Below, piece by piece: positions 10,772-60,053 of a stretch of 64,000 nt of DNA. Position 1 is the stretch's first letter. Each line of letters opens with the position of its first letter. The notes beneath the pieces are model-generated. The model searched no databases and was not told where the DNA came from. It saw only the letters and a list, made by a program, of their open reading frames with translations. Location of the stretch: NCBI GenBank assembly GCA_947053925.1, contig CAMRUG010000003.1, positions 64,205 through 128,204 on the forward strand, written 5' to 3'. Source of the DNA: an uncultured Clostridia bacterium. Lineage in GTDB: Bacteria > Bacillota > Clostridia > Christensenellales > CAG-314. A program made the translations under genes and the position numbers.

Positions 10772-12130
10772 TTATTTCCAACTTGACGGGCACGTTCGGT
10801 TATTTTTAAACCATTCGGTGTCTTTCAGTTTTACGTCCGACTCGGAAAAATACATTGACACTTGACCATTTGTGCACGCGTACACTATATTGCCGTTTAG
10901 CGAAGCAAAACCGACGTCTTTGTACGAATCGCCGTTCTTTTCGATTTCGCCGACAGTCGTAACGTAAACGGCGTCGGTATAAGGCGCAATACGGTTAATA
11001 AACTTTTGCGCAGGGAATGTGTTTTCGAGTTTTTTAGTATACTCTACACTGCCTGCACAACAGCAAATGCAAATACACTGAGGCTTTATTTTGTGCAGTA
11101 ACGACGCGCTTGCGGCAGTATAAGAACCGTGATGCCCGCCCTTGTATAACTGAACTTCGGGTAAATCAGGATTGCTGTTGACAAGCGACGTTTCGCCGCT
11201 GTCTTCTAAATCGCCTGTTAAAAGATAATGGTTGTCGCCCTGAGTAATAAGCACGCAAACGGAATAATTGTTTTCGTTAGACGTTTCCTGTTCGTAATAC
11301 TTTTGGTAAAGTATCTCCATTGTTACAGAGCCGTCGCCCGTCAAGTCGTAAACTTTCTGCGCGCCGTTTGCATTGTTTACGCAATCGAGAGCGGTATATA
11401 CGTTTGCGCCTTTCTGCTGTGCTTGGTCGCGCTTTGCGCAAAAATCTTTGTAAACTTGACTTGTTGCGTTTGTGCGGGAAAATTGAATGATATTCTCGCA
11501 TTCGTATCTGTCAAATATGCCTTGCGCCTCCTTTGTGCCTACAAAACCAGCAATATGGTCCTGATGGGCGTGAGTGGCTATGACGTATTCCAACTTGTTG
11601 TCGGTACAATAATTGTCGACATACTCGGCAATAGTTTCGGCACTGCCCGCTCTAGAACCGGCGTCGATTAAAATATCCGTTTCGCCTGCCTTTATATACA
11701 CCGAGTCGCCAGTAAAATTGTTGCCTAATTCCAAAAAGTGAATGGACAACTGCTCGTTTTTGATTGCCGCAACATCGTAAGTATTGCTGTTAAATTTTAA
11801 AGTATTGTCGGATATTATAAGCGGATCGAACCAACCCTTATAATAACCTACGCAACCTATGACAACAAAAGCAATTATTAAAATAACGGTAAGAACGATA
11901 AAAAACTTTTTCTGTTTTTTATTAGACGCTCTGCTTGCGCTTGTGGCAGTCGCCGCGACAATGCCCGTAAGCGCGTCCTTGTTCTCTTTAAAATTTTTAG
12001 ACGTATCGTACTTTTTTGCCGCCTTTACCACGCGGTTTACATTGGCTTTGGTCGTGCTTTTGCCGCCCGACTTCTTTTTTGCCGAACTGCCGGAAGTCTT
12101 TTTGTTACCGCCGTCGGATTTGTTTGCCAT
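10772..12130 (-). CDS. membrane-anchored MBL-fold metallo-hydrolase (ComEC C-terminal-domain-like)
   Basis: HAHQDHIAGF metal-binding motif and later GGHHGS. A Lys/Ser-rich N-terminus is followed by one TM. I place the start at ATG 12130 (GGGAGG RBS); the longer track ORF (to 12274) overlaps the upstream paralogue. Confidence 0.7.
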   Translation of the reverse strand: MANKSDGGNKKTSGSSAKKKSGGKSTTKANVNRVVKAAKKYDTSKNFKENKDALTGIVAATATSASRASNKKQKKFFIVLTVILIIAFVVIGCVGYYKGWFDPLIISDNTLKFNSNTYDVAAIKNEQLSIHFLELGNNFTGDSVYIKAGETDILIDAGSRAGSAETIAEYVDNYCTDNKLEYVIATHAHQDHIAGFVGTKEAQGIFDRYECENIIQFSRTNATSQVYKDFCAKRDQAQQKGANVYTALDCVNNANGAQKVYDLTGDGSVTMEILYQKYYEQETSNENNYSVCVLITQGDNHYLLTGDLEDSGETSLVNSNPDLPEVQLYKGGHHGSYTAASASLLHKIKPQCICICCCAGSVEYTKKLENTFPAQKFINRIAPYTDAVYVTTVGEIEKNGDSYKDVGFASLNGNIVYACTNGQVSMYFSESDVKLKDTEWFKNNRTCPSSWK

Positions 12131-48506: not shown

Positions 48507-48833
48507 AATTTTAATACCCGCTACTTTTTTAGGAATAACCTGTCCCCAAAAACCCATTTGATTTTTACAATTACCTTACCCGCATTGTTAAGTTTAGCAT
48601 AATGATTTGTAAACTTTTTTGCGGATTTGAAACATTGACTTTACAAATAAATTTATCATAATTACATTTATATTTCAAGCGTATTAAACATTTGGTGCAA
48701 AATTTAGACTATAATAATTAAATAAAATATGTTTATTATTTTAGACACTATATTTAACTAAATAAATATTCTATATTTTAAGTGTAAGACGTTTACAAAC
48801 AATGTAAACTGTGTTAAAATATGTACACATTTG

Positions 48834-48909
48834 GACGATTAACTCAGCTGGGAGAGTGTCTCCTTGACGTGGAGGAAGTCACAGGTTCGAGTCCTGTATC
48901 GTCCACCAC
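48834..48909 (+). tRNA. tRNA-Val (GAC)
   Basis: It folds by hand into a 76-nt cloverleaf: GGACGAT/ATCGTCC acceptor, ACTC/GAGT D-stem, anticodon loop TTGACGT, T-arm ACAGG-TTCGAGT-CCTGT and an encoded CCA. Confidence 0.9.
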
Positions 48910-50328
48910 TCGTTCGTAAAGCGAACCCGTAGAAAAGTCTGTTACATTGTAACGGACTTTTCCTTTTTTATTGCCGTAATAAATTACTTTATTGACAAAA
49001 GTATCTATAAGTGCCTGTTTGTTTTCGGTTTTGGAATAGTCAAGGTGTTTGAAACGCTTTACGTAATAGCGCAAATCTTCCAACTTAAAATCAAGAATTT
49101 CAGACTCTTCAACTTCAAGTTGCAGTTCGACTTCTTTACGCTCTTTTTCGAGTTGGTCTAATTTTTCAAGAATCGTATTTTTCGCCTTGCCGTCCATAAG
49201 CAGTTGTAAAAGATTATCCGTTGCTTTTTTATTGGCGGTAAGCAATTTTTCTAATCTCGGTACGTTTCCGTTTTTTAGTTCGTTCTGTAAAATTTCGTAT
49301 AGTGCTTGCGAAATCTTATCGATTAGTTTATCGTCAAGCAATTTAAGCGTTTCCTGAATAACTGCATTTTCAATCAAGTCTTTTGAAACTGTTTCTTGCT
49401 TGCAACCGTCTTTTTTGCCGAAACAACGATAATAAGCATATTTCTTGCCTGTATGACTTGTTCCGCTTGCGCCCGTCATAGAACTCTCGCATAGACCGCA
49501 AAAGAGTTTTGTAGTCAACAAAAACGGCTCTCTCGCCTTCTTGGATGAGGGGGCTTTATTGTTTCGTTCTAAACGGCTTTGTACGGCTTCGTAAAGCTCA
49601 TCGGATATAATTTGCGGAATGCCGCCTTTAATTTCTTTATCGTGAAAAATATAATAACCGAGATAGCGGCGATTATGTAGAATACGTTTTACCGTACCGT
49701 GACCGATTGTTTTGCCTTTGTTAAAAATCTTATTGTCAAGCAAAAACTCCTCTATTTCAACAATAGTTTTCCCGTCTGCGTACATTTCAAAAATTTTACG
49801 AACGAATACGGCTTCGCTTTCGTTGATTTGATAGTGTTTGTCTTCGTCTATATAATAACCGAGCGGAATAGCGCCGCCGAAGAATTGACATTTGCTTGCC
49901 GATACTTCGATACCGCGTTTTATCTTCTGCGAGAGTTCGACGGAATAATATTCCGCCATACTTTCGAGTACGCCTTCTACAAGAATACCGCTTGCGTCTT
50001 CGGTTATGTTTTCTTTGGCAGATAAAACGCGCACGCCGTTCTTTTTCAATTTTGCTTTATAAGTTGCGCTATCGTAGCGGTTGCGTGCAAAACGGTCCAA
50101 CTGATAAACAAGAACATACTTGAAAGTCTTTTTCTTGCTATCTTCAATCATACGCAAAAATTCGGGACGCTTATCCGTAGTTCCCGTCAATGCTCTGTCT
50201 ATGTATTCCGCTATTACATTGTAGTCGTTACGCTTGGCAAATTCGTAACACTCTTTTAACTGACCTTCAATTGATTGCTCCGTTTGCGAATGGGAACTGA
50301 ACCGTGCATATATTACGACGTTTACCAT
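48844..50328 (-). CDS. large serine recombinase
   Basis: MVNVVIYARFSSHSQTEQSIEGQ (catalytic Ser motif), DRFARN, a recombinase domain, the zinc ribbon CGLCESSMTG...YYRCFGKKDGC and a coiled-coil. Start at ATG 50328 with a GGAGG-type RBS. The last 22 codons (stop included) overlap tRNA-Val. Confidence 0.9.
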   Translation of the reverse strand: MVNVVIYARFSSHSQTEQSIEGQLKECYEFAKRNDYNVIAEYIDRALTGTTDKRPEFLRMIEDSKKKTFKYVLVYQLDRFARNRYDSATYKAKLKKNGVRVLSAKENITEDASGILVEGVLESMAEYYSVELSQKIKRGIEVSASKCQFFGGAIPLGYYIDEDKHYQINESEAVFVRKIFEMYADGKTIVEIEEFLLDNKIFNKGKTIGHGTVKRILHNRRYLGYYIFHDKEIKGGIPQIISDELYEAVQSRLERNNKAPSSKKAREPFLLTTKLFCGLCESSMTGASGTSHTGKKYAYYRCFGKKDGCKQETVSKDLIENAVIQETLKLLDDKLIDKISQALYEILQNELKNGNVPRLEKLLTANKKATDNLLQLLMDGKAKNTILEKLDQLEKERKEVELQLEVEESEILDFKLEDLRYYVKRFKHLDYSKTENKQALIDTFVNKVIYYGNKKGKVRYNVTDFSTGSLYERVVDDTGLEPVTSSTSRRHSPS

Positions 50329-50352
50329 AAAAATTACTCCTTCCAAAAAGCA

Positions 50353-50423
50353 AAAACGGGTATCCTGTTTCTTTCCGAAATCGTAGCGAAAATCACGAAG
50401 TGAGTCTCGCTCTTATCCTGTTC
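50353..50423 (-). repeat. ~71-nt leader motif, copy 1 (upstream of the recombinase)
   Basis: In the gene sense: gaacaggataag-AGCGA-18 nt-TCGCT-...-aaacagg-ata-cccgttt-TTT, then RBS and ATG. It is the inverted counterpart of 51600-51669. Confidence 0.7.
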
Positions 50424-50498
50424 AAAAATTTAGGACTTTTTCGGCTTTTTAGAGTCAATTATATTTTATCACTTTTACCTAAAAACATCAACAAATAC

Positions 50499-50527
50499 TT
50501 GGCATTTTTTATAAAAAGTGTTATAAT
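50499..50527 (+). promoter_or_regulatory. sigmaA-type promoter (TTGGCA-17-TATAAT)
   Basis: Near-consensus hexamers ~35 nt upstream of the XRE gene. Confidence 0.55.
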
Positions 50528-50560
50528 CTTTACAAGAGTTAAAAGGAGCAATATATTGAT

Positions 50561-50758
50561 ATGACTTTTTCGGAAAAAGTGAAAGCCGTTCGCAATCAAT
50601 TACAATTAACGCAGGAAGAACTCGCCCACAAATTAGGCGTTAGTTTTGCAACGGTTAATCGTTGGGAAAGCGGTTCGTATAAACCGAGCAAAATGGGACA
50701 AAGAATGTTTGAAGAATTTGTAGAAAAGAACAATTTAAATCAGGAGAATAACGAATGA
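50561..50758 (+). CDS. XRE-family helix-turn-helix protein
   Basis: VRNQLQLTQEELAHKLGVSFATVNRWESGSYKPS. Confidence 0.75.
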   Translation: MTFSEKVKAVRNQLQLTQEELAHKLGVSFATVNRWESGSYKPSKMGQRMFEEFVEKNNLNQENNE

Positions 50759-51564
50759 AAAAGTCAATCAACGTACAAGGTTACCCTATCGGAATAAAGG
50801 GTATCGAAAAAGAAAATTATATTTCTTTAACGGATATTGCACGCTTTAAAAATCCGGAAGCGCCTGCCGACGTGGTTAAAAATTGGATGCGTACACGCGC
50901 AACGATAGACTTTCTCGGTCTATGGGAAGAGCTCAATAATCCAAATGTTAACGTGGTCGAAATCGACCAGTTTAAAAATCAAGCGGGGGCAAATGCTTTT
51001 ACGATGTCTCCAAAAAAATGGATTGAAGCGACAAATGCAATCGGTATCTATTCTTCTTCCGGCAAATACGGCGGCGGAACTTTTGCACATCAAGATATAG
51101 CGTTTGAGTTTGCAAGTTGGGTTTCGGCTGAATTTAAGTTGTATCTAATCAAAGAATTCCAGCGGCTTAAAATCAACGAACAAAAAGAACTTGAATGGAA
51201 CAGCAAGCGCGAACTATCAAAAGTTAACTACCATATCCATACCGATGCAATTAAAAGTAATTTAGTCGTTCCGACTTTGAACGATTGGCAAGTCAGTTTC
51301 GTATATGCGTCAGAAGCGGATATACTTAACACTGCTCTATTCGGTAAAACAGCGGCAGATTGGCGAAAAGAAAATCCCGATAAAAAGGGAAACATACGCG
51401 ACTATGCAACCATGGAACAATTGCTTGTAATAGCAAATATGGAAAGTTATAACGCTATTTTAATCGCACAGGGATTACCGCAATCCGAACGATTGAAACT
51501 ATTAAACGCAATGGCTGACAGCCAAATGCAAGTATTGCTGAATAGTCCTAAAAGATTGAAATAA
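50755..51564 (+). CDS. KilA-N domain DNA-binding protein
   Basis: ISLTDIARFKNPEAPADVVKNWMRTRATIDFLGLWEELNNP ... FAHQDIAFEFASWVSAEFKLYLIKEF is typical of KilA-N proteins found next to R-M genes. It overlaps the XRE gene by 4 nt. Confidence 0.6.
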   Translation: MKKSINVQGYPIGIKGIEKENYISLTDIARFKNPEAPADVVKNWMRTRATIDFLGLWEELNNPNVNVVEIDQFKNQAGANAFTMSPKKWIEATNAIGIYSSSGKYGGGTFAHQDIAFEFASWVSAEFKLYLIKEFQRLKINEQKELEWNSKRELSKVNYHIHTDAIKSNLVVPTLNDWQVSFVYASEADILNTALFGKTAADWRKENPDKKGNIRDYATMEQLLVIANMESYNAILIAQGLPQSERLKLLNAMADSQMQVLLNSPKRLK

Positions 51565-51599
51565 GTGAATCAGAGTACTTAAAAATCCCCTTATTTAGG

Positions 51600-51669
51600 G
51601 AACAGGATAAAGGTGGGATTCACTTGGTGTGCATGCCACCCACATAAACACAAACGGGATACCCGTTTT
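51600..51669 (+). repeat. ~70-nt leader motif, copy 2 (upstream of the R-M gene)
   Basis: gaacaggataaa-GGTGG-19 nt-CCACC-...-aaacggg-ata-cccgttt-T, then RBS and ATG 51690. The 30-nt box is 24/30 identical to copy 1, and the hairpin is conserved. Confidence 0.7.
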
Positions 51670-51689
51670 GAGAACAAAAAGGAAATACC

Positions 51690-54600
51690 ATGATTAACAA
51701 AAGTAACTTTAAAGAATTGATTATAAAACTTGGCTTTACGGATAACGGCACATTATTTGTAAAAGAATTCGCGCAATTTTCTTGTTCGATGTCCGTCGAC
51801 TTTGTAAATGAAAAATTAATCTATCCTACTTTTATCGTCGGCAGAGAGCGCAACGATTCTTTTAGCCAAGACGAAAATTTCGTTGTGTTTGAATGTGTAA
51901 ACCGACTTTTAGAAAAAGGTTATCGTCCCGAACATATCGAACTCGAAAAGGTTTGGACTTTGGGACATATTCAAAAAAGCGGGCGTGCCGATATTTGCGT
52001 TTATAATAAAGATAAGTCCGCTATGCTTTTCATCATAGAATGTAAATCTGCAGGTAGAGAGTATAATAAAGCCTTAAAAAACACTTTAAATGACGGCGCA
52101 CAGTTATTTTCCTATTGGCAACAAGAACAATCGACTAAATGGCTTTGCCTTTATCAGTCTGATTATGTGAATAATGAAGTTTGTTACAAAGCGACTACAA
52201 TCAATTGCTCTGACGATAAAAATATAGAAGATTTAGCGAAGAAAGATAAAACCATAAAACTTTATTCTTCCGCCTTTACTGCACCGGAAAAATATTTAGT
52301 ATGGAAAGAAACTTATAATCTTCAAATTCTTGATAATATCATATTTGCAGAAGATACGGTTGCATACGAAATCGGAATAAGGCCTTTACGTAAAAAAGAT
52401 TTAAAAGACTTTTCGCCGGAAGATAAAATAGTAAACCGTTTTGAAGAAATATTGCGCCACAATAACGTAAGCGATAAAGAAAATGCCTTTAATCGGTTAA
52501 TAGCGTTGTTTATTTGTAAACTCGTCGATGAAATAGAAAAATCCGATACAGACGAAGTAGAATTTCAATATAAACTCGGCACAGACACATATGAAAGTCT
52601 GCAAGACAGATTGCAAAGACTTCATAAACAAGGTATGGACGAGTTTATGAAAGAAAAGATTTTCTATGTAGAAAACGATTACGCCGAAAAATTGTTTTTG
52701 CAATACACCGGTTCTAAAAGAAAACAAGCGATAGAAGATTTAAGTAAAACAATAAGAATTTTAAAATTCTATACAAATAACGATTTTGCTTTTAAAGATG
52801 TACATAACGAAGAACTTTTCTTCCAAAACGGTAAAATCTTAGTCGAAGTCGTTCAACTTTTTGAAAATTACAGAATTGTCTATCCTGCAAAACATCAATT
52901 TTTGGGGGATTTGTTCGAACAGTTATTAAATAAAGGTTTTAAGCAAAACGAAGGGCAATTTTTTACTCCTACTCCCATAACCCGTTTTATATGGGATAGT
53001 TTGCCTATTGAAAAAATAATTAAGAACAAAGACAAATACAATTTACCGAGAGTTATCGACTATGCTTGCGGCGCTGGGCATTTCTTAACCGAAGGCGTTG
53101 AAGCAATCAATAGTTATTTTGAACATATCGGTAATGCGGCATTAGTGCAAAATAATGCGTGGGTTGAAACCAATATTTATGGGATAGAGAAGGACTACCG
53201 TTTGGCTCGTGTGTCAAAAGTTTCAATGTTTATGAACGGTGCGGGCGGAGCAAATATTGTTTTTGGGGACGGACTTGAAAACTATCCCGAAAAACAGATT
53301 GAAGCAAATTCGTTTGATATTTTGGTTGCTAATCCGCCGTATTCCGTTGAAGCTTTTAAGCCACATTTAAAATTAAAAAATAATTCTTTTGAATTGTTAA
53401 AAATTATATCTAATAACGGATCGGAAATAGAAACGCTATTTGTTGAACGAATTGCTCAACTTGTAAAGCCAAAAGGTATCGCCGCCGTATTGTTACCTTC
53501 TCCGATACTCTCAAATACTTCATCAAGTTACATTGTAGCACGAGAACAGTTTTTAAAACATTTTCTTATTCGCGCAATTGTCAGTTTAGGTTCGAAAACT
53601 TTTGGGGCAACCGGTACAAATACGGTAATTATGTTTTTGGAAAAACGTGATGAACCGCCCATACAAGAGAAGTTAGTTGAAGATAGTGCTAATGCAATCC
53701 TTTCTAATCTTAATTTAACGGATTGGATTGATAGCGAAATCAAATTACAATATTTATCTCAAATCGGCGTTGCTGATGACGAATACGCTGTATTGATTGA
53801 CGAAAATCAAGATATAAATTTATTGCAAGAATCCGATTATTTTAAAGGATATTTTACCGAATATAACAAAACTAAAAGAAAACAAACGGTAAGAGCGTTT
53901 ATAAAAGAACGGGAATTTAATAAACTCAAATATTTTGCTTTGGTTTGCAAACAAGAAACTTTAATAATCACAGCTCCTGCCGATAATATAAAACAAAAAG
54001 AATTTTTAGGATATGATTGGAGTAATCGCAAGGGTGCCGAAGGAATCGTTATCAATAAATTCGGCGGAATGATGTTTGATGAACAGAACCGATATGCAGA
54101 GAACACATTAGCGTTTCTTATCAAACAATCATTTTTTAACAATAAGTTATCATTGCTAGATAAAGAACATTATTATGCGTATTACGAATTAAAAAATTTA
54201 ATAGATTTTAGTAGATTAGAATTTCATAAAGCGATTAAGATTGTTAATGACAAAAAATTAACAATCAGTAGCAAATACAATTTATTACCGTTGGGACAAA
54301 TCTGCGATGTTCGTATAGGTGGTACTCCTTCTAGAAAAAATATGCAATACTTTACAGGAACTAACTTATGGGTTACCATTGCAGAAATGAATGGTCAAGT
54401 GATTAACGATACTAAAGAGAAAATTACTGAACAAGCAATAAAAAATTCTAACGTAAAACTTATTCCGAAAGGTACAACTCTGTTAAGTTTTAAGTTGAGT
54501 ATTGGGAAAACGGCAATAGCAGGTGTTGATTTATACACAAATGAAGCAATAGCCGCACTTATACCGCTTACAAAAAATTTATTGAATGCGTATTTATTCC

Positions 54601-54857
54601 ATTTATTTCACAGTGGTTTAATAGATTTAACGAATGTTGGAAACAAAGCATTTGGTAAAAGTTTAAATAGCACATATTTAAAAGAAGAAGTAAAAATCCC
54701 AGTACCCCCGCTTGATATTCAAGAAAAGATAATTGCGGAATGTCAAAAAGTTGATGAAGAATATAACTCTACACGCATGACTATCGAAGAATATCGTAGA
54801 AAGATTGAGAAACTATTTCGCGAACTCGACGTAATTTCTGGGGGGGGTATGAGTTAA
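51690..54857 (+). CDS. fused restriction endonuclease - N6-adenine methyltransferase - specificity (TRD1) protein, type IIB/IIG-like; frame ends just after a G8 tract
   Basis: N-terminal PD-(D/E)xK candidate (GRADICVY ... FIIECKS); methylase motif I DYACGAGHFL and motif IV LVANPPYS. The C-terminal HsdS-like TRD is LPLGQICDVRIGGTPSRKN...NEAIAALIP, followed by a conserved helix. Confidence 0.85.
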   Translation: MINKSNFKELIIKLGFTDNGTLFVKEFAQFSCSMSVDFVNEKLIYPTFIVGRERNDSFSQDENFVVFECVNRLLEKGYRPEHIELEKVWTLGHIQKSGRADICVYNKDKSAMLFIIECKSAGREYNKALKNTLNDGAQLFSYWQQEQSTKWLCLYQSDYVNNEVCYKATTINCSDDKNIEDLAKKDKTIKLYSSAFTAPEKYLVWKETYNLQILDNIIFAEDTVAYEIGIRPLRKKDLKDFSPEDKIVNRFEEILRHNNVSDKENAFNRLIALFICKLVDEIEKSDTDEVEFQYKLGTDTYESLQDRLQRLHKQGMDEFMKEKIFYVENDYAEKLFLQYTGSKRKQAIEDLSKTIRILKFYTNNDFAFKDVHNEELFFQNGKILVEVVQLFENYRIVYPAKHQFLGDLFEQLLNKGFKQNEGQFFTPTPITRFIWDSLPIEKIIKNKDKYNLPRVIDYACGAGHFLTEGVEAINSYFEHIGNAALVQNNAWVETNIYGIEKDYRLARVSKVSMFMNGAGGANIVFGDGLENYPEKQIEANSFDILVANPPYSVEAFKPHLKLKNNSFELLKIISNNGSEIETLFVERIAQLVKPKGIAAVLLPSPILSNTSSSYIVAREQFLKHFLIRAIVSLGSKTFGATGTNTVIMFLEKRDEPPIQEKLVEDSANAILSNLNLTDWIDSEIKLQYLSQIGVADDEYAVLIDENQDINLLQESDYFKGYFTEYNKTKRKQTVRAFIKEREFNKLKYFALVCKQETLIITAPADNIKQKEFLGYDWSNRKGAEGIVINKFGGMMFDEQNRYAENTLAFLIKQSFFNNKLSLLDKEHYYAYYELKNLIDFSRLEFHKAIKIVNDKKLTISSKYNLLPLGQICDVRIGGTPSRKNMQYFTGTNLWVTIAEMNGQVINDTKEKITEQAIKNSNVKLIPKGTTLLSFKLSIGKTAIAGVDLYTNEAIAALIPLTKNLLNAYLFHLFHSGLIDLTNVGNKAFGKSLNSTYLKEEVKIPVPPLDIQEKIIAECQKVDEEYNSTRMTIEEYRRKIEKLFRELDVISGGGMS

Positions 54858-54883
54858 GACTATCTGACAGAGAACTATTCAAT

Positions 54884-55363
54884 TTGTTTATCGGAAAGCG
54901 CGTATTAAATAGCGAACTTGTCGAAACAGGATTGCCCGTATTTAGTGCTAATACTTATGAGCCTTTCGGGTATATAAACTCGGATATAGTTAAAGACTTC
55001 TCTACACCTTCGGTTATTTGGGGAATTGACGGGGATTGGATGACGAATACTCTCCCTTCAAATTATGCGTTTTATCCAACGGACCATTGCGGTGTAATTC
55101 GTTTGAAAAAAAGCAATGTAATTGAATACAAATATTTGGCTTGGTTGCTTTTGCAAGAAGGTAAAAAGGCGCGGTTTTCAAGGTCGTATCGGGCTTCAAT
55201 TGATAGGGTAAGTCAAATAAAATTAGCCGTTCCTCCATATGAAAAACAAAAAGAATTTGTTGCTCAAGTTGATGTTTTAGAACAACAAATAGCAGAATTG
55301 GAATCAAAGCTGGGTGCAATAGATAAAGAAAAACAAGACATTATTTCTAAATATTTAAACTGA
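54884..55363 (+). CDS. HsdS-like target recognition domain 2 plus conserved helix (probably the displaced C-terminus of the upstream R-M protein)
   Basis: FIGKRVLNSELVETGLPVFSAN ... TDHCGVIRLK ... KYLAWLLL, then coiled-coil QVDVLEQQIAELESKL. This frame is open from 54809 through the G8 tract (54840-54847). The track start is a TTG, and I saw no RBS upstream of it. Confidence 0.7.
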   Translation: MFIGKRVLNSELVETGLPVFSANTYEPFGYINSDIVKDFSTPSVIWGIDGDWMTNTLPSNYAFYPTDHCGVIRLKKSNVIEYKYLAWLLLQEGKKARFSRSYRASIDRVSQIKLAVPPYEKQKEFVAQVDVLEQQIAELESKLGAIDKEKQDIISKYLN

Positions 55364-55573
55364 TTGGAGTTAAATATGGAACAATCAAAATGGCTGGACG
55401 AAGCATTGGCTTGTTATGAAGAAGAAAAGTCAAAAAACCCAGACTATCTTTCTTTCGATAACACAATGATTAAAGCCTTTGCCCGCCGAATTGTCAGACA
55501 AATAAAAGAACAAATGAAACTCGACAACGAACAATGTGAATTATTGTTAAATGCTATTTTTAAAAGGAGATAA
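55364..55573 (+). CDS. small hypothetical protein
   Basis: 69-aa acidic/helical ORF tightly packed between the S-like ORF and the ImmA-like gene. Confidence 0.4.
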   Translation: MELNMEQSKWLDEALACYEEEKSKNPDYLSFDNTMIKAFARRIVRQIKEQMKLDNEQCELLLNAIFKRR

Positions 55574-55579
55574 TGAGAA

Positions 55580-56737
55580 ATGGCAGAAGCTCTTACAGGC
55601 GTAAACGGCTCAATTATAAAATGGGCTCGCGAATATTACAACATGTCACCAATGGATGCTGCTTACACTATTGGTATTGATTTAGAGCGATATGAAAAAT
55701 GGGAAGAAGGGACAGAGTTTCCCACGTATGCAAAGTTAAAGCAAATAAGTGCTGTATTCCATAAGCCCTGCGCCATTTTCTTCTTTCCTACTCCACCAGA
55801 ATTGCCAAGTATAAAAGGTGATTTGAGAACTCTTCCATCTTCTATTGTGGACACTTTAAGCAAGAATGTAGTTCTTCAATTTGAGAAAGCTAAAGTATAT
55901 CAACTTAATTTGCAAGAGTTATATGGTAGTCGTGAAAGCATAATTGAAAAGTATCAAAATTTACAATTGGACAGAAATGCGCTATGCAAAACATTAAGAC
56001 AGCAATTTGAATTTCCAGTTAGCGCACAAAAAGCAAGAAAATCTGATAAAGTAGTTTTTGAAATATTTAGAGAAAAATTTTATAATTTAGGCATTTATGT
56101 TTTTAAAGATGCTTTTAAAGATAATAGCATATCTGGACTTTGTGTCAACGATAAAAATTATCCTATAATTATAATAAATAATGCGATGTCGTTTGCACGA
56201 CAAAATTTCACATTGTTTCACGAGTTATATCATCTTATTTCTAATACGAGTGGCGTGGAAATTATTCGCGATGAATACTATAATGAACTTAATGACTCTC
56301 AAAAAGCAATAGAGAAAGAATGTGATTGTTTTGCAAATGAATTTTTAGTGCCTACAACAGATTTCGAACTTGAATTAAAAAAACAAGAAATTACAGAAAA
56401 AAGAATTGCAGAATTAGCTACATTGTATTCTGTTAGTAAAGAAGCAATTATGTATAAGCTATATGCGCTTCATATTATTTCAGCAGATGATTATGCCGCA
56501 TTGAAAGAATATTTCTACGGAGATGCTATTCGAAGTAAACAAAATAATGGCGACACAAAGAGCAGTGGGAATTACTATTTTACAAAACTTTCATATTTGG
56601 GGCATCAATATACTGGCGAAGTATTTAGTCAATATTTCTCAGGCAAAATTGATACTTACCGCGCAAGTGAAATGCTATCAAGTAAAGTAGAACATCTCTC
56701 TAAATTGGAAGCGACATTTTTTAGGGGGATTAAATAA
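55580..56737 (+). CDS. ImmA/IrrE-family HTH-Zn-metallopeptidase (COG2856-like)
   Basis: N-terminal XRE-type HTH region (IIKWAREYYNMSPMDAAYTIGIDLERYEKWEEG) and HExxH in FTLFHELYHLISN. Confidence 0.8.
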   Translation: MAEALTGVNGSIIKWAREYYNMSPMDAAYTIGIDLERYEKWEEGTEFPTYAKLKQISAVFHKPCAIFFFPTPPELPSIKGDLRTLPSSIVDTLSKNVVLQFEKAKVYQLNLQELYGSRESIIEKYQNLQLDRNALCKTLRQQFEFPVSAQKARKSDKVVFEIFREKFYNLGIYVFKDAFKDNSISGLCVNDKNYPIIIINNAMSFARQNFTLFHELYHLISNTSGVEIIRDEYYNELNDSQKAIEKECDCFANEFLVPTTDFELELKKQEITEKRIAELATLYSVSKEAIMYKLYALHIISADDYAALKEYFYGDAIRSKQNNGDTKSSGNYYFTKLSYLGHQYTGEVFSQYFSGKIDTYRASEMLSSKVEHLSKLEATFFRGIK

Positions 56738-57219
56738 TGGTTTATGTTATTGATACTTGTGTCTTCCGCAAACTTTTAGATCATTTACCGCGCAAAGGTA
56801 GCTACTTTGAAAAAGTATGGAATAAATTTGAAAATGGAATTATAGCAAAAAATTATATTTCTGTAGATGAATGCTTTAATGAACTAGATAAGCATTACGA
56901 TGATAAAAGTGCAAATGCTCTATGGCTAAAAAAATATAAGAATATGTTCCTATCTCCTACAAACGCGGAATCTTTAATTATAAAGGATATTTTTACATCT
57001 GCCAAAATGAGAGAAAGCGTACATACTAAAAATATTCTTGATAATAGACCTTCCGCGGATGTGTTTTTAGCCGCAAAGGCAAAAACAACAAACGCCATTG
57101 TGGTAACAGTAGAATCATACAAACCTAATTCTGCACAATTACCAAATATATGCGAAAAAATTGGAGTTCAATTTATTAGTTATGACGATTTTATGGAAAT
57201 CTTAATGCAAGATGAATGA
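56737..57219 (+). CDS. DUF4411 (PIN-like) domain protein
   Basis: MVYVIDTCVF N-terminus (PIN-like acidic start). Its size and obligate pairing downstream of an ImmA/IrrE gene match DUF4411. The start overlaps the upstream stop. Confidence 0.55.
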   Translation: MVYVIDTCVFRKLLDHLPRKGSYFEKVWNKFENGIIAKNYISVDECFNELDKHYDDKSANALWLKKYKNMFLSPTNAESLIIKDIFTSAKMRESVHTKNILDNRPSADVFLAAKAKTTNAIVVTVESYKPNSAQLPNICEKIGVQFISYDDFMEILMQDE

Positions 57220-57450
57220 TTCATCAATCCACGCGTTTCGTCCGTTTGTAATTAAAGTTAGGTTCGTTTTTAAGAACGAGCGTTCCACCAAGCGCAGACT
57301 TGCTTATTAGTCGCAACAGATAAGGTACTGAAAACAGTACCTTTTTCTATTGTTTCCTTTTACTGCGTCTGCTTTATCTTAATGATATACGGATAACGAA
57401 ATAATGTAGCGCTCCACTTTGTTTCGCTTACCGTTGCTTAGGCAATCGGA

Positions 57451-57471
57451 CGAGTCCTGTATCGTCCACCA
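57451..57471 (+). repeat. attR core: duplicated 3' end of tRNA-Val
   Basis: cgagtcctgtatcgtccacca is identical to 48889-48909. Confidence 0.85.
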
Positions 57472-57683
57472 AACAATATCCTATTGAAGCCGTAAGGATT
57501 TGAGTGGGTATTGTTTTAGACATTTTATTATTTATCGAAAAACACTGCTTCTATCCCAAGTCAATTTTCCTACTACAGCAAAAGCAATTTCGGAAGCAAT
57601 AATATATGCTTGAATACATTATCAGTTTGTAGTATAATTAAATTCACTTAAAAATAACAAAATCAATTTTACGGTAATACACT

Positions 57684-58876: not shown

Positions 58877-58953
58877 AGGAGCATAGCTCAGCAGGTTAGA
58901 GCACCACCCTGATAAGGTGGGGGTCGGTGGTTCGAGTCCACTTGCTCCTACCA
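58877..58953 (+). tRNA. tRNA-Ile (GAT)
   Basis: 77-nt cloverleaf: AGGAGCA/TGCTCCT acceptor, GCTC/GAGC D-stem, CCACC-CTGATAA-GGTGG anticodon arm, T-loop TTCGAGT and CCA. Confidence 0.9.
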
Positions 58954-59121
58954 AAGTACCGCAAAGCGGTACTTTTTTTATGTTTACAAACAAGCATTGA
59001 ACTTGTTCATAAGCGAAGTTTGTGAGCATAAAAAGTACAATGGCGTAGCCGTTGTTGGTAGGAAAAGAGACGAGAACCGTTAGTTTGTTGAGACCACCAC
59101 CATTACATCGTAGATATAAGG
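58933..59121 (+). repeat. 189-bp direct repeat, copy 1 (tRNA-Ile 3' core + terminator + ~140 bp)
   Basis: About 98% identical by eye to 59258-59444. Differences are a 2-T indel and 2 substitutions. Confidence 0.85.
58956..58979 (+). terminator. rho-independent terminator after tRNA-Ile
   Basis: gtaccgc-aaa-gcggtac followed by T7. It is duplicated at 59281-59302 with T5. Confidence 0.75.
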
Positions 59122-59257
59122 CAAAGTGTTCGCTACGCTTGGCTAAGAAGGTGGGCGACTTTTTTTACTACTGCACCGCAACTTTTTTGTGCAACAGGAA
59201 TTATCGAAATAACGTAGCGCTCCGTTTCACTACGCTTACCCTGCGCTACGCTTGGGA

Positions 59258-59444
59258 CGAGTCCACTTGCTCCTACCAAAGTACCGCAAAGCGGTACTTT
59301 TTATGTTTACAAACAAGCATTGAACTTGTTCATAAGCGAAGTTTGTGAACATAAAAAGTACAATGGCGTAGCCGTTGTTGGTAGGAAAAGAGACGATAAC
59401 CGTTAGTTTGTTGAGACCACCACCATTACATCGTAGATATAAGG
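59258..59444 (+). repeat. direct repeat, copy 2, beginning with a second copy of the 21-bp tRNA-Ile 3' core
   Basis: cgagtccacttgctcctacca at 59258-59278 equals 58933-58953. The downstream 166 bp match copy 1. Confidence 0.85.
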
Positions 59445-59507
59445 TGGTCGGTGATGACGCGATTTGCGTAACAAATACGCTGAGGGGCGTTGCTGACGCT
59501 CCTTGCA

Positions 59508-59528
59508 CGAGTCCACTTGCTCCTACCA
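59508..59528 (+). repeat. third copy of the 21-bp tRNA-Ile 3' core
   Basis: cgagtccacttgctcctacca is identical to 58933-58953 and 59258-59278. A distinct terminator-like hairpin follows (aaacgaaccatcgttt...T-run). Confidence 0.85.
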
Positions 59529-60053
59529 TACCCAACCTAAAACGAACCATCGTTTTGGGTTTTCTTTTTTGTGTTTTTAATTTCAAGTAAAGGTTGTTAT
59601 TTACTTATTTAATTTATATCTTAATTATTTATTGTATTTTAATAAACAGCAATTTATAAAACTACAAATTCCCATAAAGCCAAACGCACGCCACAATCAC
59701 AATATTGTATTTATGTTATATACCATGTTTTGTGATTGTATCTATAGTATAAGCCACCGACACAGTAAATTTGACTTTTTTGACTGTGTAAAAGTATTGA
59801 TTTTAAATTTCAAATATGCTATACTGTTTATGCTAAACAATCATTATAGTCCCAAATTAGGAGTAAGGGCATTTTTTCATTTTATAGAAAAATTTTCAAC
59901 ATTACACAAATTGAATTTGACAAAAATGCAAATTCCTTTTATGTGTGTGTTGGACTATACCCTTACGCATAATGATTGTTTAGCGACTATTGGAGTTTGT
60001 GTTTTTTGTGCGCTTACTTCGGTAGGCGCACTTTTTATTTTACGGAGGAATAT

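Follow-up and report, generated by a model that had tools for sequence, protein, structure and literature searches.

A large serine recombinase whose reading frame runs into the tRNA-Val gene occupied by its defence island in a gut Clostridia genome

Read from its sequence, the region that we describe here is an 8.56-kb integrative island of anti-phage defence genes, inserted by a large serine recombinase (LSR) in the T-loop of the tRNA-Val(GAC) gene of an uncultured Clostridia bacterium. The island probably rebuilds the tRNA upon insertion, with a crossover near the left end of the repeat that flanks it, and the C-terminal tail of the recombinase, which changes between the integrated and the excised state, would be a tolerated by-product of the overlap between the gene and the attachment (att) site. 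It is a further case of an LSR design that is already known and has been thinly described.

Results

The island and its target gene

The target is the tRNA-Val(GAC) gene found by ARAGORN at 48833..48908 (+ strand) of the window, i.e., the whole stretch of 64,000 nucleotides that was analysed. It is the sole copy in a genome in which all 43 tRNAs are single copy. The initial annotation had described an island in the 3' part of a tRNA gene, flanked by a 21-bp repeat starting in the T-loop, and the tRNA call and the positions of the repeats agree with this description. The first copy, the attL core (48888..48908, + strand), covers tRNA positions C56 to A76, from the T-loop to the CCA end, and the second, the attR core (57451..57471, + strand), is the displaced native 3' end of the tRNA. 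There are exactly two exact copies of this 21-mer, CGAGTCCTGTATCGTCCACCA, in the window (0 matches in 100 shuffles), and it is absent from the rest of the genome. The same left boundary, C56, was found in 12 further repeat copies, namely those of a tRNA-Leu island and two tRNA-Ile copies in this genome and nine second tRNA-Val copies in relatives. The native terminator of tRNA-Val follows the attR core (57472..57520, + strand; it aligns with four related species), the island being now placed between the tRNA and this terminator.

Since none of the 43 tRNAs of the genome has a second copy, the element has to bring the 3' segment of the tRNA along. The island would bring its own tRNA positions 56-76 and rebuild tRNA-Val upon insertion, and the last 19-21 nt of the gene would be island-supplied once integration has occurred. 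It is because of this carried copy that the repeat is unusually long (21 bp).

The island body spans 48909..57450, as delimited by the repeat spacing and the flanks of unoccupied sites, and the element amounts to 8,563 bp with one core copy. At its left end, 24 nt past the end of the tRNA, there is a terminator-like feature with a 14-bp stem and a T run (48932..48971, + strand), its strong hairpin being placed at 48932-48962. It is island-borne, lies within the LSR coding sequence on the antisense strand and takes the place of the native terminator of the tRNA. Its opposite strand provides the codons for ...KKGKVRYNVTDFS..., and the DNA of this tRNA-Val terminator also codes for the conserved strand region ...KVRYNVTDF... 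of the LSR.

Beyond the LSR gene, and divergent from it, the cargo begins with an XRE-type HTH regulator (50561..50758, + strand; Pfam HTH_3), followed by a KilA-N domain protein (50755..51564, + strand) that matches the PADLOC candidate defence family PDC-S22 (E 4e-126). The largest feature is a split type IIG restriction-modification enzyme (51690..55363, + strand), composed of a 1055-aa R-M-S chain (51690-54857) and a second specificity domain that has been displaced (54884-55363), both pieces being covered by PDLC03624. A three-gene module comes last (55364..57219, + strand), with a 69-aa ORF, a protein combining an HTH and an ImmA/IrrE metallopeptidase (RmrA/CapP-like) and a DUF4411/PIN-like protein.

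The right end, or P arm (57394..57450, + strand), abuts the core and has the conserved pattern ...CGAAATAATGTAGCGCTCC..CGCTTACC..GGA (alignment A3). Within this genome the motif is shared by the tRNA-Val element, the tRNA-Leu element and one of the tRNA-Ile elements, and three other genomes have it as well; the second tRNA-Ile copy aligned poorly to it. A reading of the motif as a hairpin with compensatory changes was inconsistent across copies, and we regard it as a sequence motif. In an excised circle, the complement of this right end would supply the last 7 codons and the stop of the LSR.

The recombinase reading frame

The LSR gene (48844..50328, - strand; 494 aa) was defined from Pfam, the starts of homologues, the invariant residues and an AlphaFold2 (AF2) model. 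The mechanical ORF is slightly longer (48844..50346, - strand; 500 aa from a TTG at 50346), and the ATG at 50328 is likely to be the actual start, as it is in the homologues. Pfam identifies the Resolvase, Recombinase and Zn_ribbon_recom domains (PF00239, PF07508, PF13408), the first of them, the resolvase catalytic domain, at residues 10-150 (E 1.7e-28). Within the YARFSS motif the catalytic R9 and S11 show no variation among 60 homologues, nor do the zinc-ribbon cysteines, and in the AF2 model the long helices of a coiled coil (316-428) are inserted between the zinc-ribbon strands. No phage-integrase domain or tyrosine recombinase was detected by Pfam in any island ORF of at least 50 aa, and the LSR is the island's only recombinase, as the initial annotation had it.

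The same annotation had made several claims about the sequence at the end of this gene, and all of them held. The element does not encode a stop codon for the LSR; the frame crosses the core and goes on into host tRNA sequence, overlapping tRNA-Val by 65 nt, and its stop codon (48844-48846) lies inside the tRNA. The last 22 codons, that is, 21 residues (VVDDTGLEPVTSSTSRRHSPS) and the stop, are antisense to tRNA-Val, and 14 codons plus the stop are found beyond the 21-bp repeat, in the host part of the gene. When the core is joined to the sequence left of the attR core, as in an excised circle, the frame reads ...VVDDTGL-VRLPKQR and stops. The integrated form of the protein ends ...GLEPVTSSTSRRHSPS and the excised-circle form ends ...VVDDTGLVRLPKQR (...GLVRLPKQR) before the stop, so that the two states predict two different C-termini, which at the level of the sequence is certain.

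An open frame antisense to a single tRNA is by itself not unusual, and the significance of the LSR frame entering the tRNA comes from its recurrence throughout the family.

Related loci and their targets

The homologues (50-95% identity) end in ...LVExxG(L/F)EP..., which is the translated complement of the tRNA acceptor and T-arm. Among 80 related gut-Clostridia loci, 29 had a recognisable convergent tRNA or tmRNA gene at the end of the ORF, including the window locus and two further LSR loci of this genome (tRNA-Leu and tRNA-Ser), and in all 29 the LSR frame enters this gene. The codon phase is the same in 28, with the complement of the ACCA end plus position 72 reading (L/M/V)(V/A). The stop lies beyond 21 nt in 27 loci; in the other two it is found at 17 nt (L011) and 22 nt (L003), inside the core. 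A recombinase stopping before the repeat, which in the initial annotation was to count against its reading if seen in related islands, occurs in 0 of 29, although protein divergence reaches 50%. The part encoded by the tRNA adds between 0 and about 80 residues, and its length and sequence follow the target tRNA. Taken across these loci, a frame that enters a tRNA or tmRNA gene is a family trait. Two small "Bacteriophage sp." contigs (H1 and H2), with matches reaching the end of the query, belong to a different LSR group and are devoid of tRNA-like tails.

Altogether there are 13 targets (Val, two Leu, two Ser, two Ala, Lys, two Glu, Arg, Pro and tmRNA). A quick tree groups the tRNA users in one clade, within which the target has changed often, and very similar enzymes are found at different genes: 97%-identical LSRs at tRNA-Glu(TTC) and at tmRNA (L032 vs. 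L038), and 90.6%-identical ones at tmRNA and at tRNA-Ala(CGC) (L014 vs. L011). This suggests that discrimination among tRNA-like targets is loose at the protein level.

The genome under study provides some of these loci. At tRNA-Leu(CAG) there is a second small LSR island of 5.27 kb (contig C15:22518-27812; locus L144 1019-6313), with a repeat of 21 nt that also starts at C56 and has one mismatch, and the excised form of its LSR would end ...GLVRL before the stop. Its cargo consists of a sigma-70 region-4 HTH protein, a nitroreductase-like protein and a TetR regulator, and its right end is homologous to that of the tRNA-Val island. The LSR of contig C24 (locus L003 501-2114; 47% identical by BLAST) enters tRNA-Ser(GCT), at 2093-2183, in a different codon phase and stops 22 nt into it; no second repeat copy for this locus was found in the assembly. 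Within the window itself, at 58928-59552, the 3' core of tRNA-Ile is present three times, delimiting gene-less mini-elements of 325 and 250 bp with repeats from C56. The first of them carries the right-end motif in common with the tRNA-Val island (..ACGTAGCGCTCC..CGCTTACC..GGGA). These mini-elements probably arose by deletion from LSR elements of this family, or are non-autonomous partners of such elements.

Insertion sites and mobility

Of the 82 family genomes, 34 carry the tRNA-Val 3' end. The comparison with unoccupied tRNA-Val genes that had been proposed in the initial annotation was possible in four related species (G004, G014, G031 and G015), in which the sole tRNA-Val(GAC) gene has immediately after it a terminator hairpin homologous to the window sequence right of the attR core; the empty (attB) sites reconstructed from three other occupied genomes align likewise. 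From these alignments we conclude that the insertion is precise and that the tRNA-Val site is used repeatedly. Evidence for an empty site in this same species, also proposed, did not appear, the exact attB junction pattern having 0 matches in metagenome contigs, in collections from which close relatives may be missing. DNA and protein searches with the island flanks detected no conserved synteny in the genus.

Several relatives have a second core copy, located 172-249 bp, 2 kb or 11.7 kb downstream. Identity starts at C56 in nine of ten second tRNA-Val copies, preceded by an element-side arm that in most of them ends ..GGA or ..AGA, and in this genome the same start and arm are seen at the tRNA-Leu island and in the two tRNA-Ile copies. 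The exception among the second tRNA-Val copies is that of G092, with a 25-nt repeat. The inner sequence of attP is in most copies close to a dyad, GGAC-RA-GTCC, and we infer that the crossover probably takes place near the left end of the repeat, at or near R57-A58 inside this dyad. The single mismatch of the tRNA-Leu repeat (position 61) is equally compatible with a crossover further 3'. The staggered 2-bp cut at a central dinucleotide between short att sites that is characteristic of serine integrases may apply here, to judge by the C56 boundary and the dyad.

The shortest second-copy intervals are mini-elements of 172-249 bp between two tRNA-Val core copies (L098, L113, L116 and L125, in G051, G036, G047 and G078, respectively), each with a terminator on the left and, preceding the second copy of the core, an arm of the element type. 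Those of G051 and G036, the only two of these minis that were aligned, share the conserved right-end motif. The 11.7-kb insertion at the tRNA-Val of G092 (locus L124, G092:C6:14627-26372) has a 25-nt repeat starting GGTT and a duplicated downstream flank, and is probably the product of a different integration system acting at the same tRNA-Val. In G095 (L133-L135, contig C1, about 45.7 and 52.0 kb beyond tRNA-Leu) a tRNA has a 23-nt repeat of its 3' end 6.3 kb off, which suggests a further small island.

Complete elements, and hence excised-form tails, were available for the two islands of this genome (Val and Leu). For L006, L024 and L025 a search of the whole genome allowing up to 1 mismatch returned no second copy of the repeat, and neither did one allowing up to 5 mismatches over 60 kb or as far as the contig reached. 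One of the closest homologues, P0005, is on a possibly circular contig of 9.7 kb. The closest LSR in the genome collection (89% identical, locus L005) adjoins, at 11430-11460, about 8 nt of core followed by unrelated sequence and has no tRNA nearby; we judged it a rearranged or decayed site and discarded it as an informative junction.

Discussion

The variable tail of the recombinase

There are several possible explanations for a recombinase whose last residues depend on where its gene is located. The one that we prefer starts from the position of the gene. The LSR gene occupies the very tip of the element, in a convergent arrangement with the tRNA, and attP overlaps its 3' end; on the simplest reading, the fold of the protein comes to an end within the att core. 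If the folded protein ends there, no room is left for an element-encoded stop, and translation therefore ends at the first in-frame stop beyond the core. This stop would be met 14 codons into the tRNA when the element is integrated and 7 codons into the other end of the element when it is circular.

The structural model points in the same direction. The AF2 prediction (60 homologues; mean pLDDT 76) has a fold ending with a weakly supported strand, 469-475 (SLYERVV; pLDDT about 50), the last two residues of which are encoded by the core, as the complement of the ACCA end and C72 of the tRNA. The tail that follows (477-494) has pLDDT values below 50, near 30, and is predicted to be disordered, and the state-dependent residues (481-494, replaced by VRLPKQR in the circle) fall within it. 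Moreover, across the 29 loci the tRNA-encoded tails have no shared motif or recognisable degradation tag. On balance, the model and the family comparison favour a variable tail that would be a tolerated by-product rather than a switch. As stability signals are themselves disordered, a tail of this kind may nevertheless serve as a signal for degradation. Also, the lack of a stop before the core in every relative could reflect selection for read-through, and not merely a lack of room.

The main alternative would be a switch between isoforms, in which the integrated, tRNA-encoded tail and the short tail of the circle alter the stability or the directionality of the LSR, biasing the circle towards integration and keeping the integrated copy quiet. 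That there are two C-termini, as it requires, is certain from the sequence, 27 of 29 relatives have their stop past the core and none has it before, and similar proposals have been made for DsiB (PMC3146451) and Shimadzu Int (10.1101/575076). However, the residues that vary are those predicted to be disordered (pLDDT below 50), and a tail of 0 to about 80 residues that follows the target tRNA, with no motif in common, also speaks against it. Besides, with a stop located in the core itself, the two forms of the protein would be identical in L011 and differ by at most one residue in L003, and the switch would be absent or almost so. The evidence from sequence and model thus leans against the state sensor that had been suggested for this island, and we consider the switch unlikely.

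Regulation could also take place at the level of the RNA and not of the protein. The mRNA of the integrated LSR gene would have to be transcribed and translated against a strongly expressed tRNA-Val, and convergent transcription or antisense pairing would lower the expression of the full-length LSR, an effect that the circle escapes. The convergent arrangement is found in every member of the family, and here the 3' end of the LSR gene contains a site resembling a promoter of the tRNA, together with a + strand terminator brought by the island. Yet no minus-strand terminator is predicted near the end of the LSR ORF; we would give this possibility an even smaller chance than the switch. It is very improbable, finally, that the island is an immobile remnant fixed after one insertion, with a frame running into the tRNA by decay of an inactive gene: the exact attB pattern had no match in metagenome contigs and an excision junction did not turn up, remnants devoid of genes are frequent at tRNA-Val and neighbouring tRNAs, and the 89%-identical LSR of L005 adjoins a truncated core, but the repeats are exact, the ORF is full-length with catalytic and zinc-binding residues invariant across 60 homologues, another protein, 95% identical, has the same tail, and the site is unoccupied in related species.

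A wider idea concerns targeting. From the nearly identical LSRs found at different genes (97% and 90.6%) we would tentatively propose, as a possibility well short of even, that the LSRs of this clade recognise generic tRNA-like features (the T-arm and the ACCA end) rather than one particular gene, and that the carried 21-nt segment mainly sets which tRNA is the target. If this were true, the enzymes could be retargeted by swapping a short att arm; one stretch of DNA would be used three times, as tRNA end, att half-site and last codons of the enzyme, and the rewritten tail could additionally be a mark of state. For the engineering of serine integrases, it is of interest that the clade changes its target quickly, among 13 tRNA-like genes, while the proteins remain highly identical.

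Comparison with known systems

Targeting of tRNA genes is still treated by reviews and tools as a hallmark of tyrosine integrases. The Islander paper of 2014 considered that serine-family integrases were not known to target tRNA genes (PMC4383910), a 2017 review attributes to serine-recombinase elements very short repeats and the disruption of their target genes, and a large LSR survey of 2022 groups the targets by disrupted protein-coding genes, tRNA being unmentioned in its main text. The island described here shares with those of tyrosine integrases (Islander/TIGER class; PMC4383910) the location in the 3' part of a tRNA, the direct repeat made of a tRNA fragment and the rebuilding of the tRNA, but unlike them it contains no tyrosine recombinase. 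It illustrates how the tRNA is preserved, by an element-borne 3' segment and a replacement terminator, and provides a clean and fully delimited example for an under-described clade of tRNA- and tmRNA-using LSRs of gut Clostridia.

An att core inside a coding sequence is a likeness to the cluster G mycobacteriophages. In these, reportedly described by Broussard et al. in 2013, attP is said to lie inside a coding sequence, so that integration changes the C-terminus of a protein. The integrase is reportedly a tyrosine integrase and the rewritten protein a repressor that loses a degradation tag, an effect said to have been shown experimentally. In our case, by contrast, the integrase is an LSR, and it is the recombinase and not a repressor that is rewritten.

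The idea of a C-terminal state sensor is not new, as it is in print for two serine recombinases. One is the integrase of the Roseburia phage Shimadzu, with an att site inside the LSR gene int (Cornuault et al., 2019; bioRxiv 10.1101/575076). Its lysogen and free-phage forms differ in their last 22 aa, a role in protein stability was proposed with the integration-dependent immunity of mycobacteriophages as the analogy, and insertion in a tRNA is mentioned only at a secondary site (10.1101/575076). This integrase, 43.5% identical to the LSR of the window, is likewise a gut-Firmicute LSR with an att core inside its coding sequence and two C-termini. However, it belongs to a phage of 45 kb vs. an island of 8.6 kb here, and unlike that of our LSR, the tail of its free form is not tRNA-like.

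The other, with the same architecture in the published description, is DsiB of Dehalococcoides, an LSR of ca. 540 aa whose islands are inserted in ssrA, in mid T-loop, with a 20-bp repeat (McMurdie et al., 2011; PMC3146451). The dsiB gene always overlaps attL and is without a stop codon of its own, its authors asked whether DsiB is fully functional only in the circular form, and the position that they gave for the crossover is the same as the one inferred here (PMC3146451). In both systems the LSR gene is located at attL, convergent with a tRNA-like gene, with a repeat of ca. 20 bp that covers the 3' end from the T-loop and a frame that overlaps attL with no stop of its own. The differences lie in the rest of the element. 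Here there is neither a second, small serine recombinase (DsiA) nor any homologue of RecF, ParB or Mom (Pfam, all island ORFs). The target is a true tRNA (Val) in a gut Clostridia genome, and the genes that are carried are for anti-phage defence, vs. the dehalogenases of the DsiB islands.
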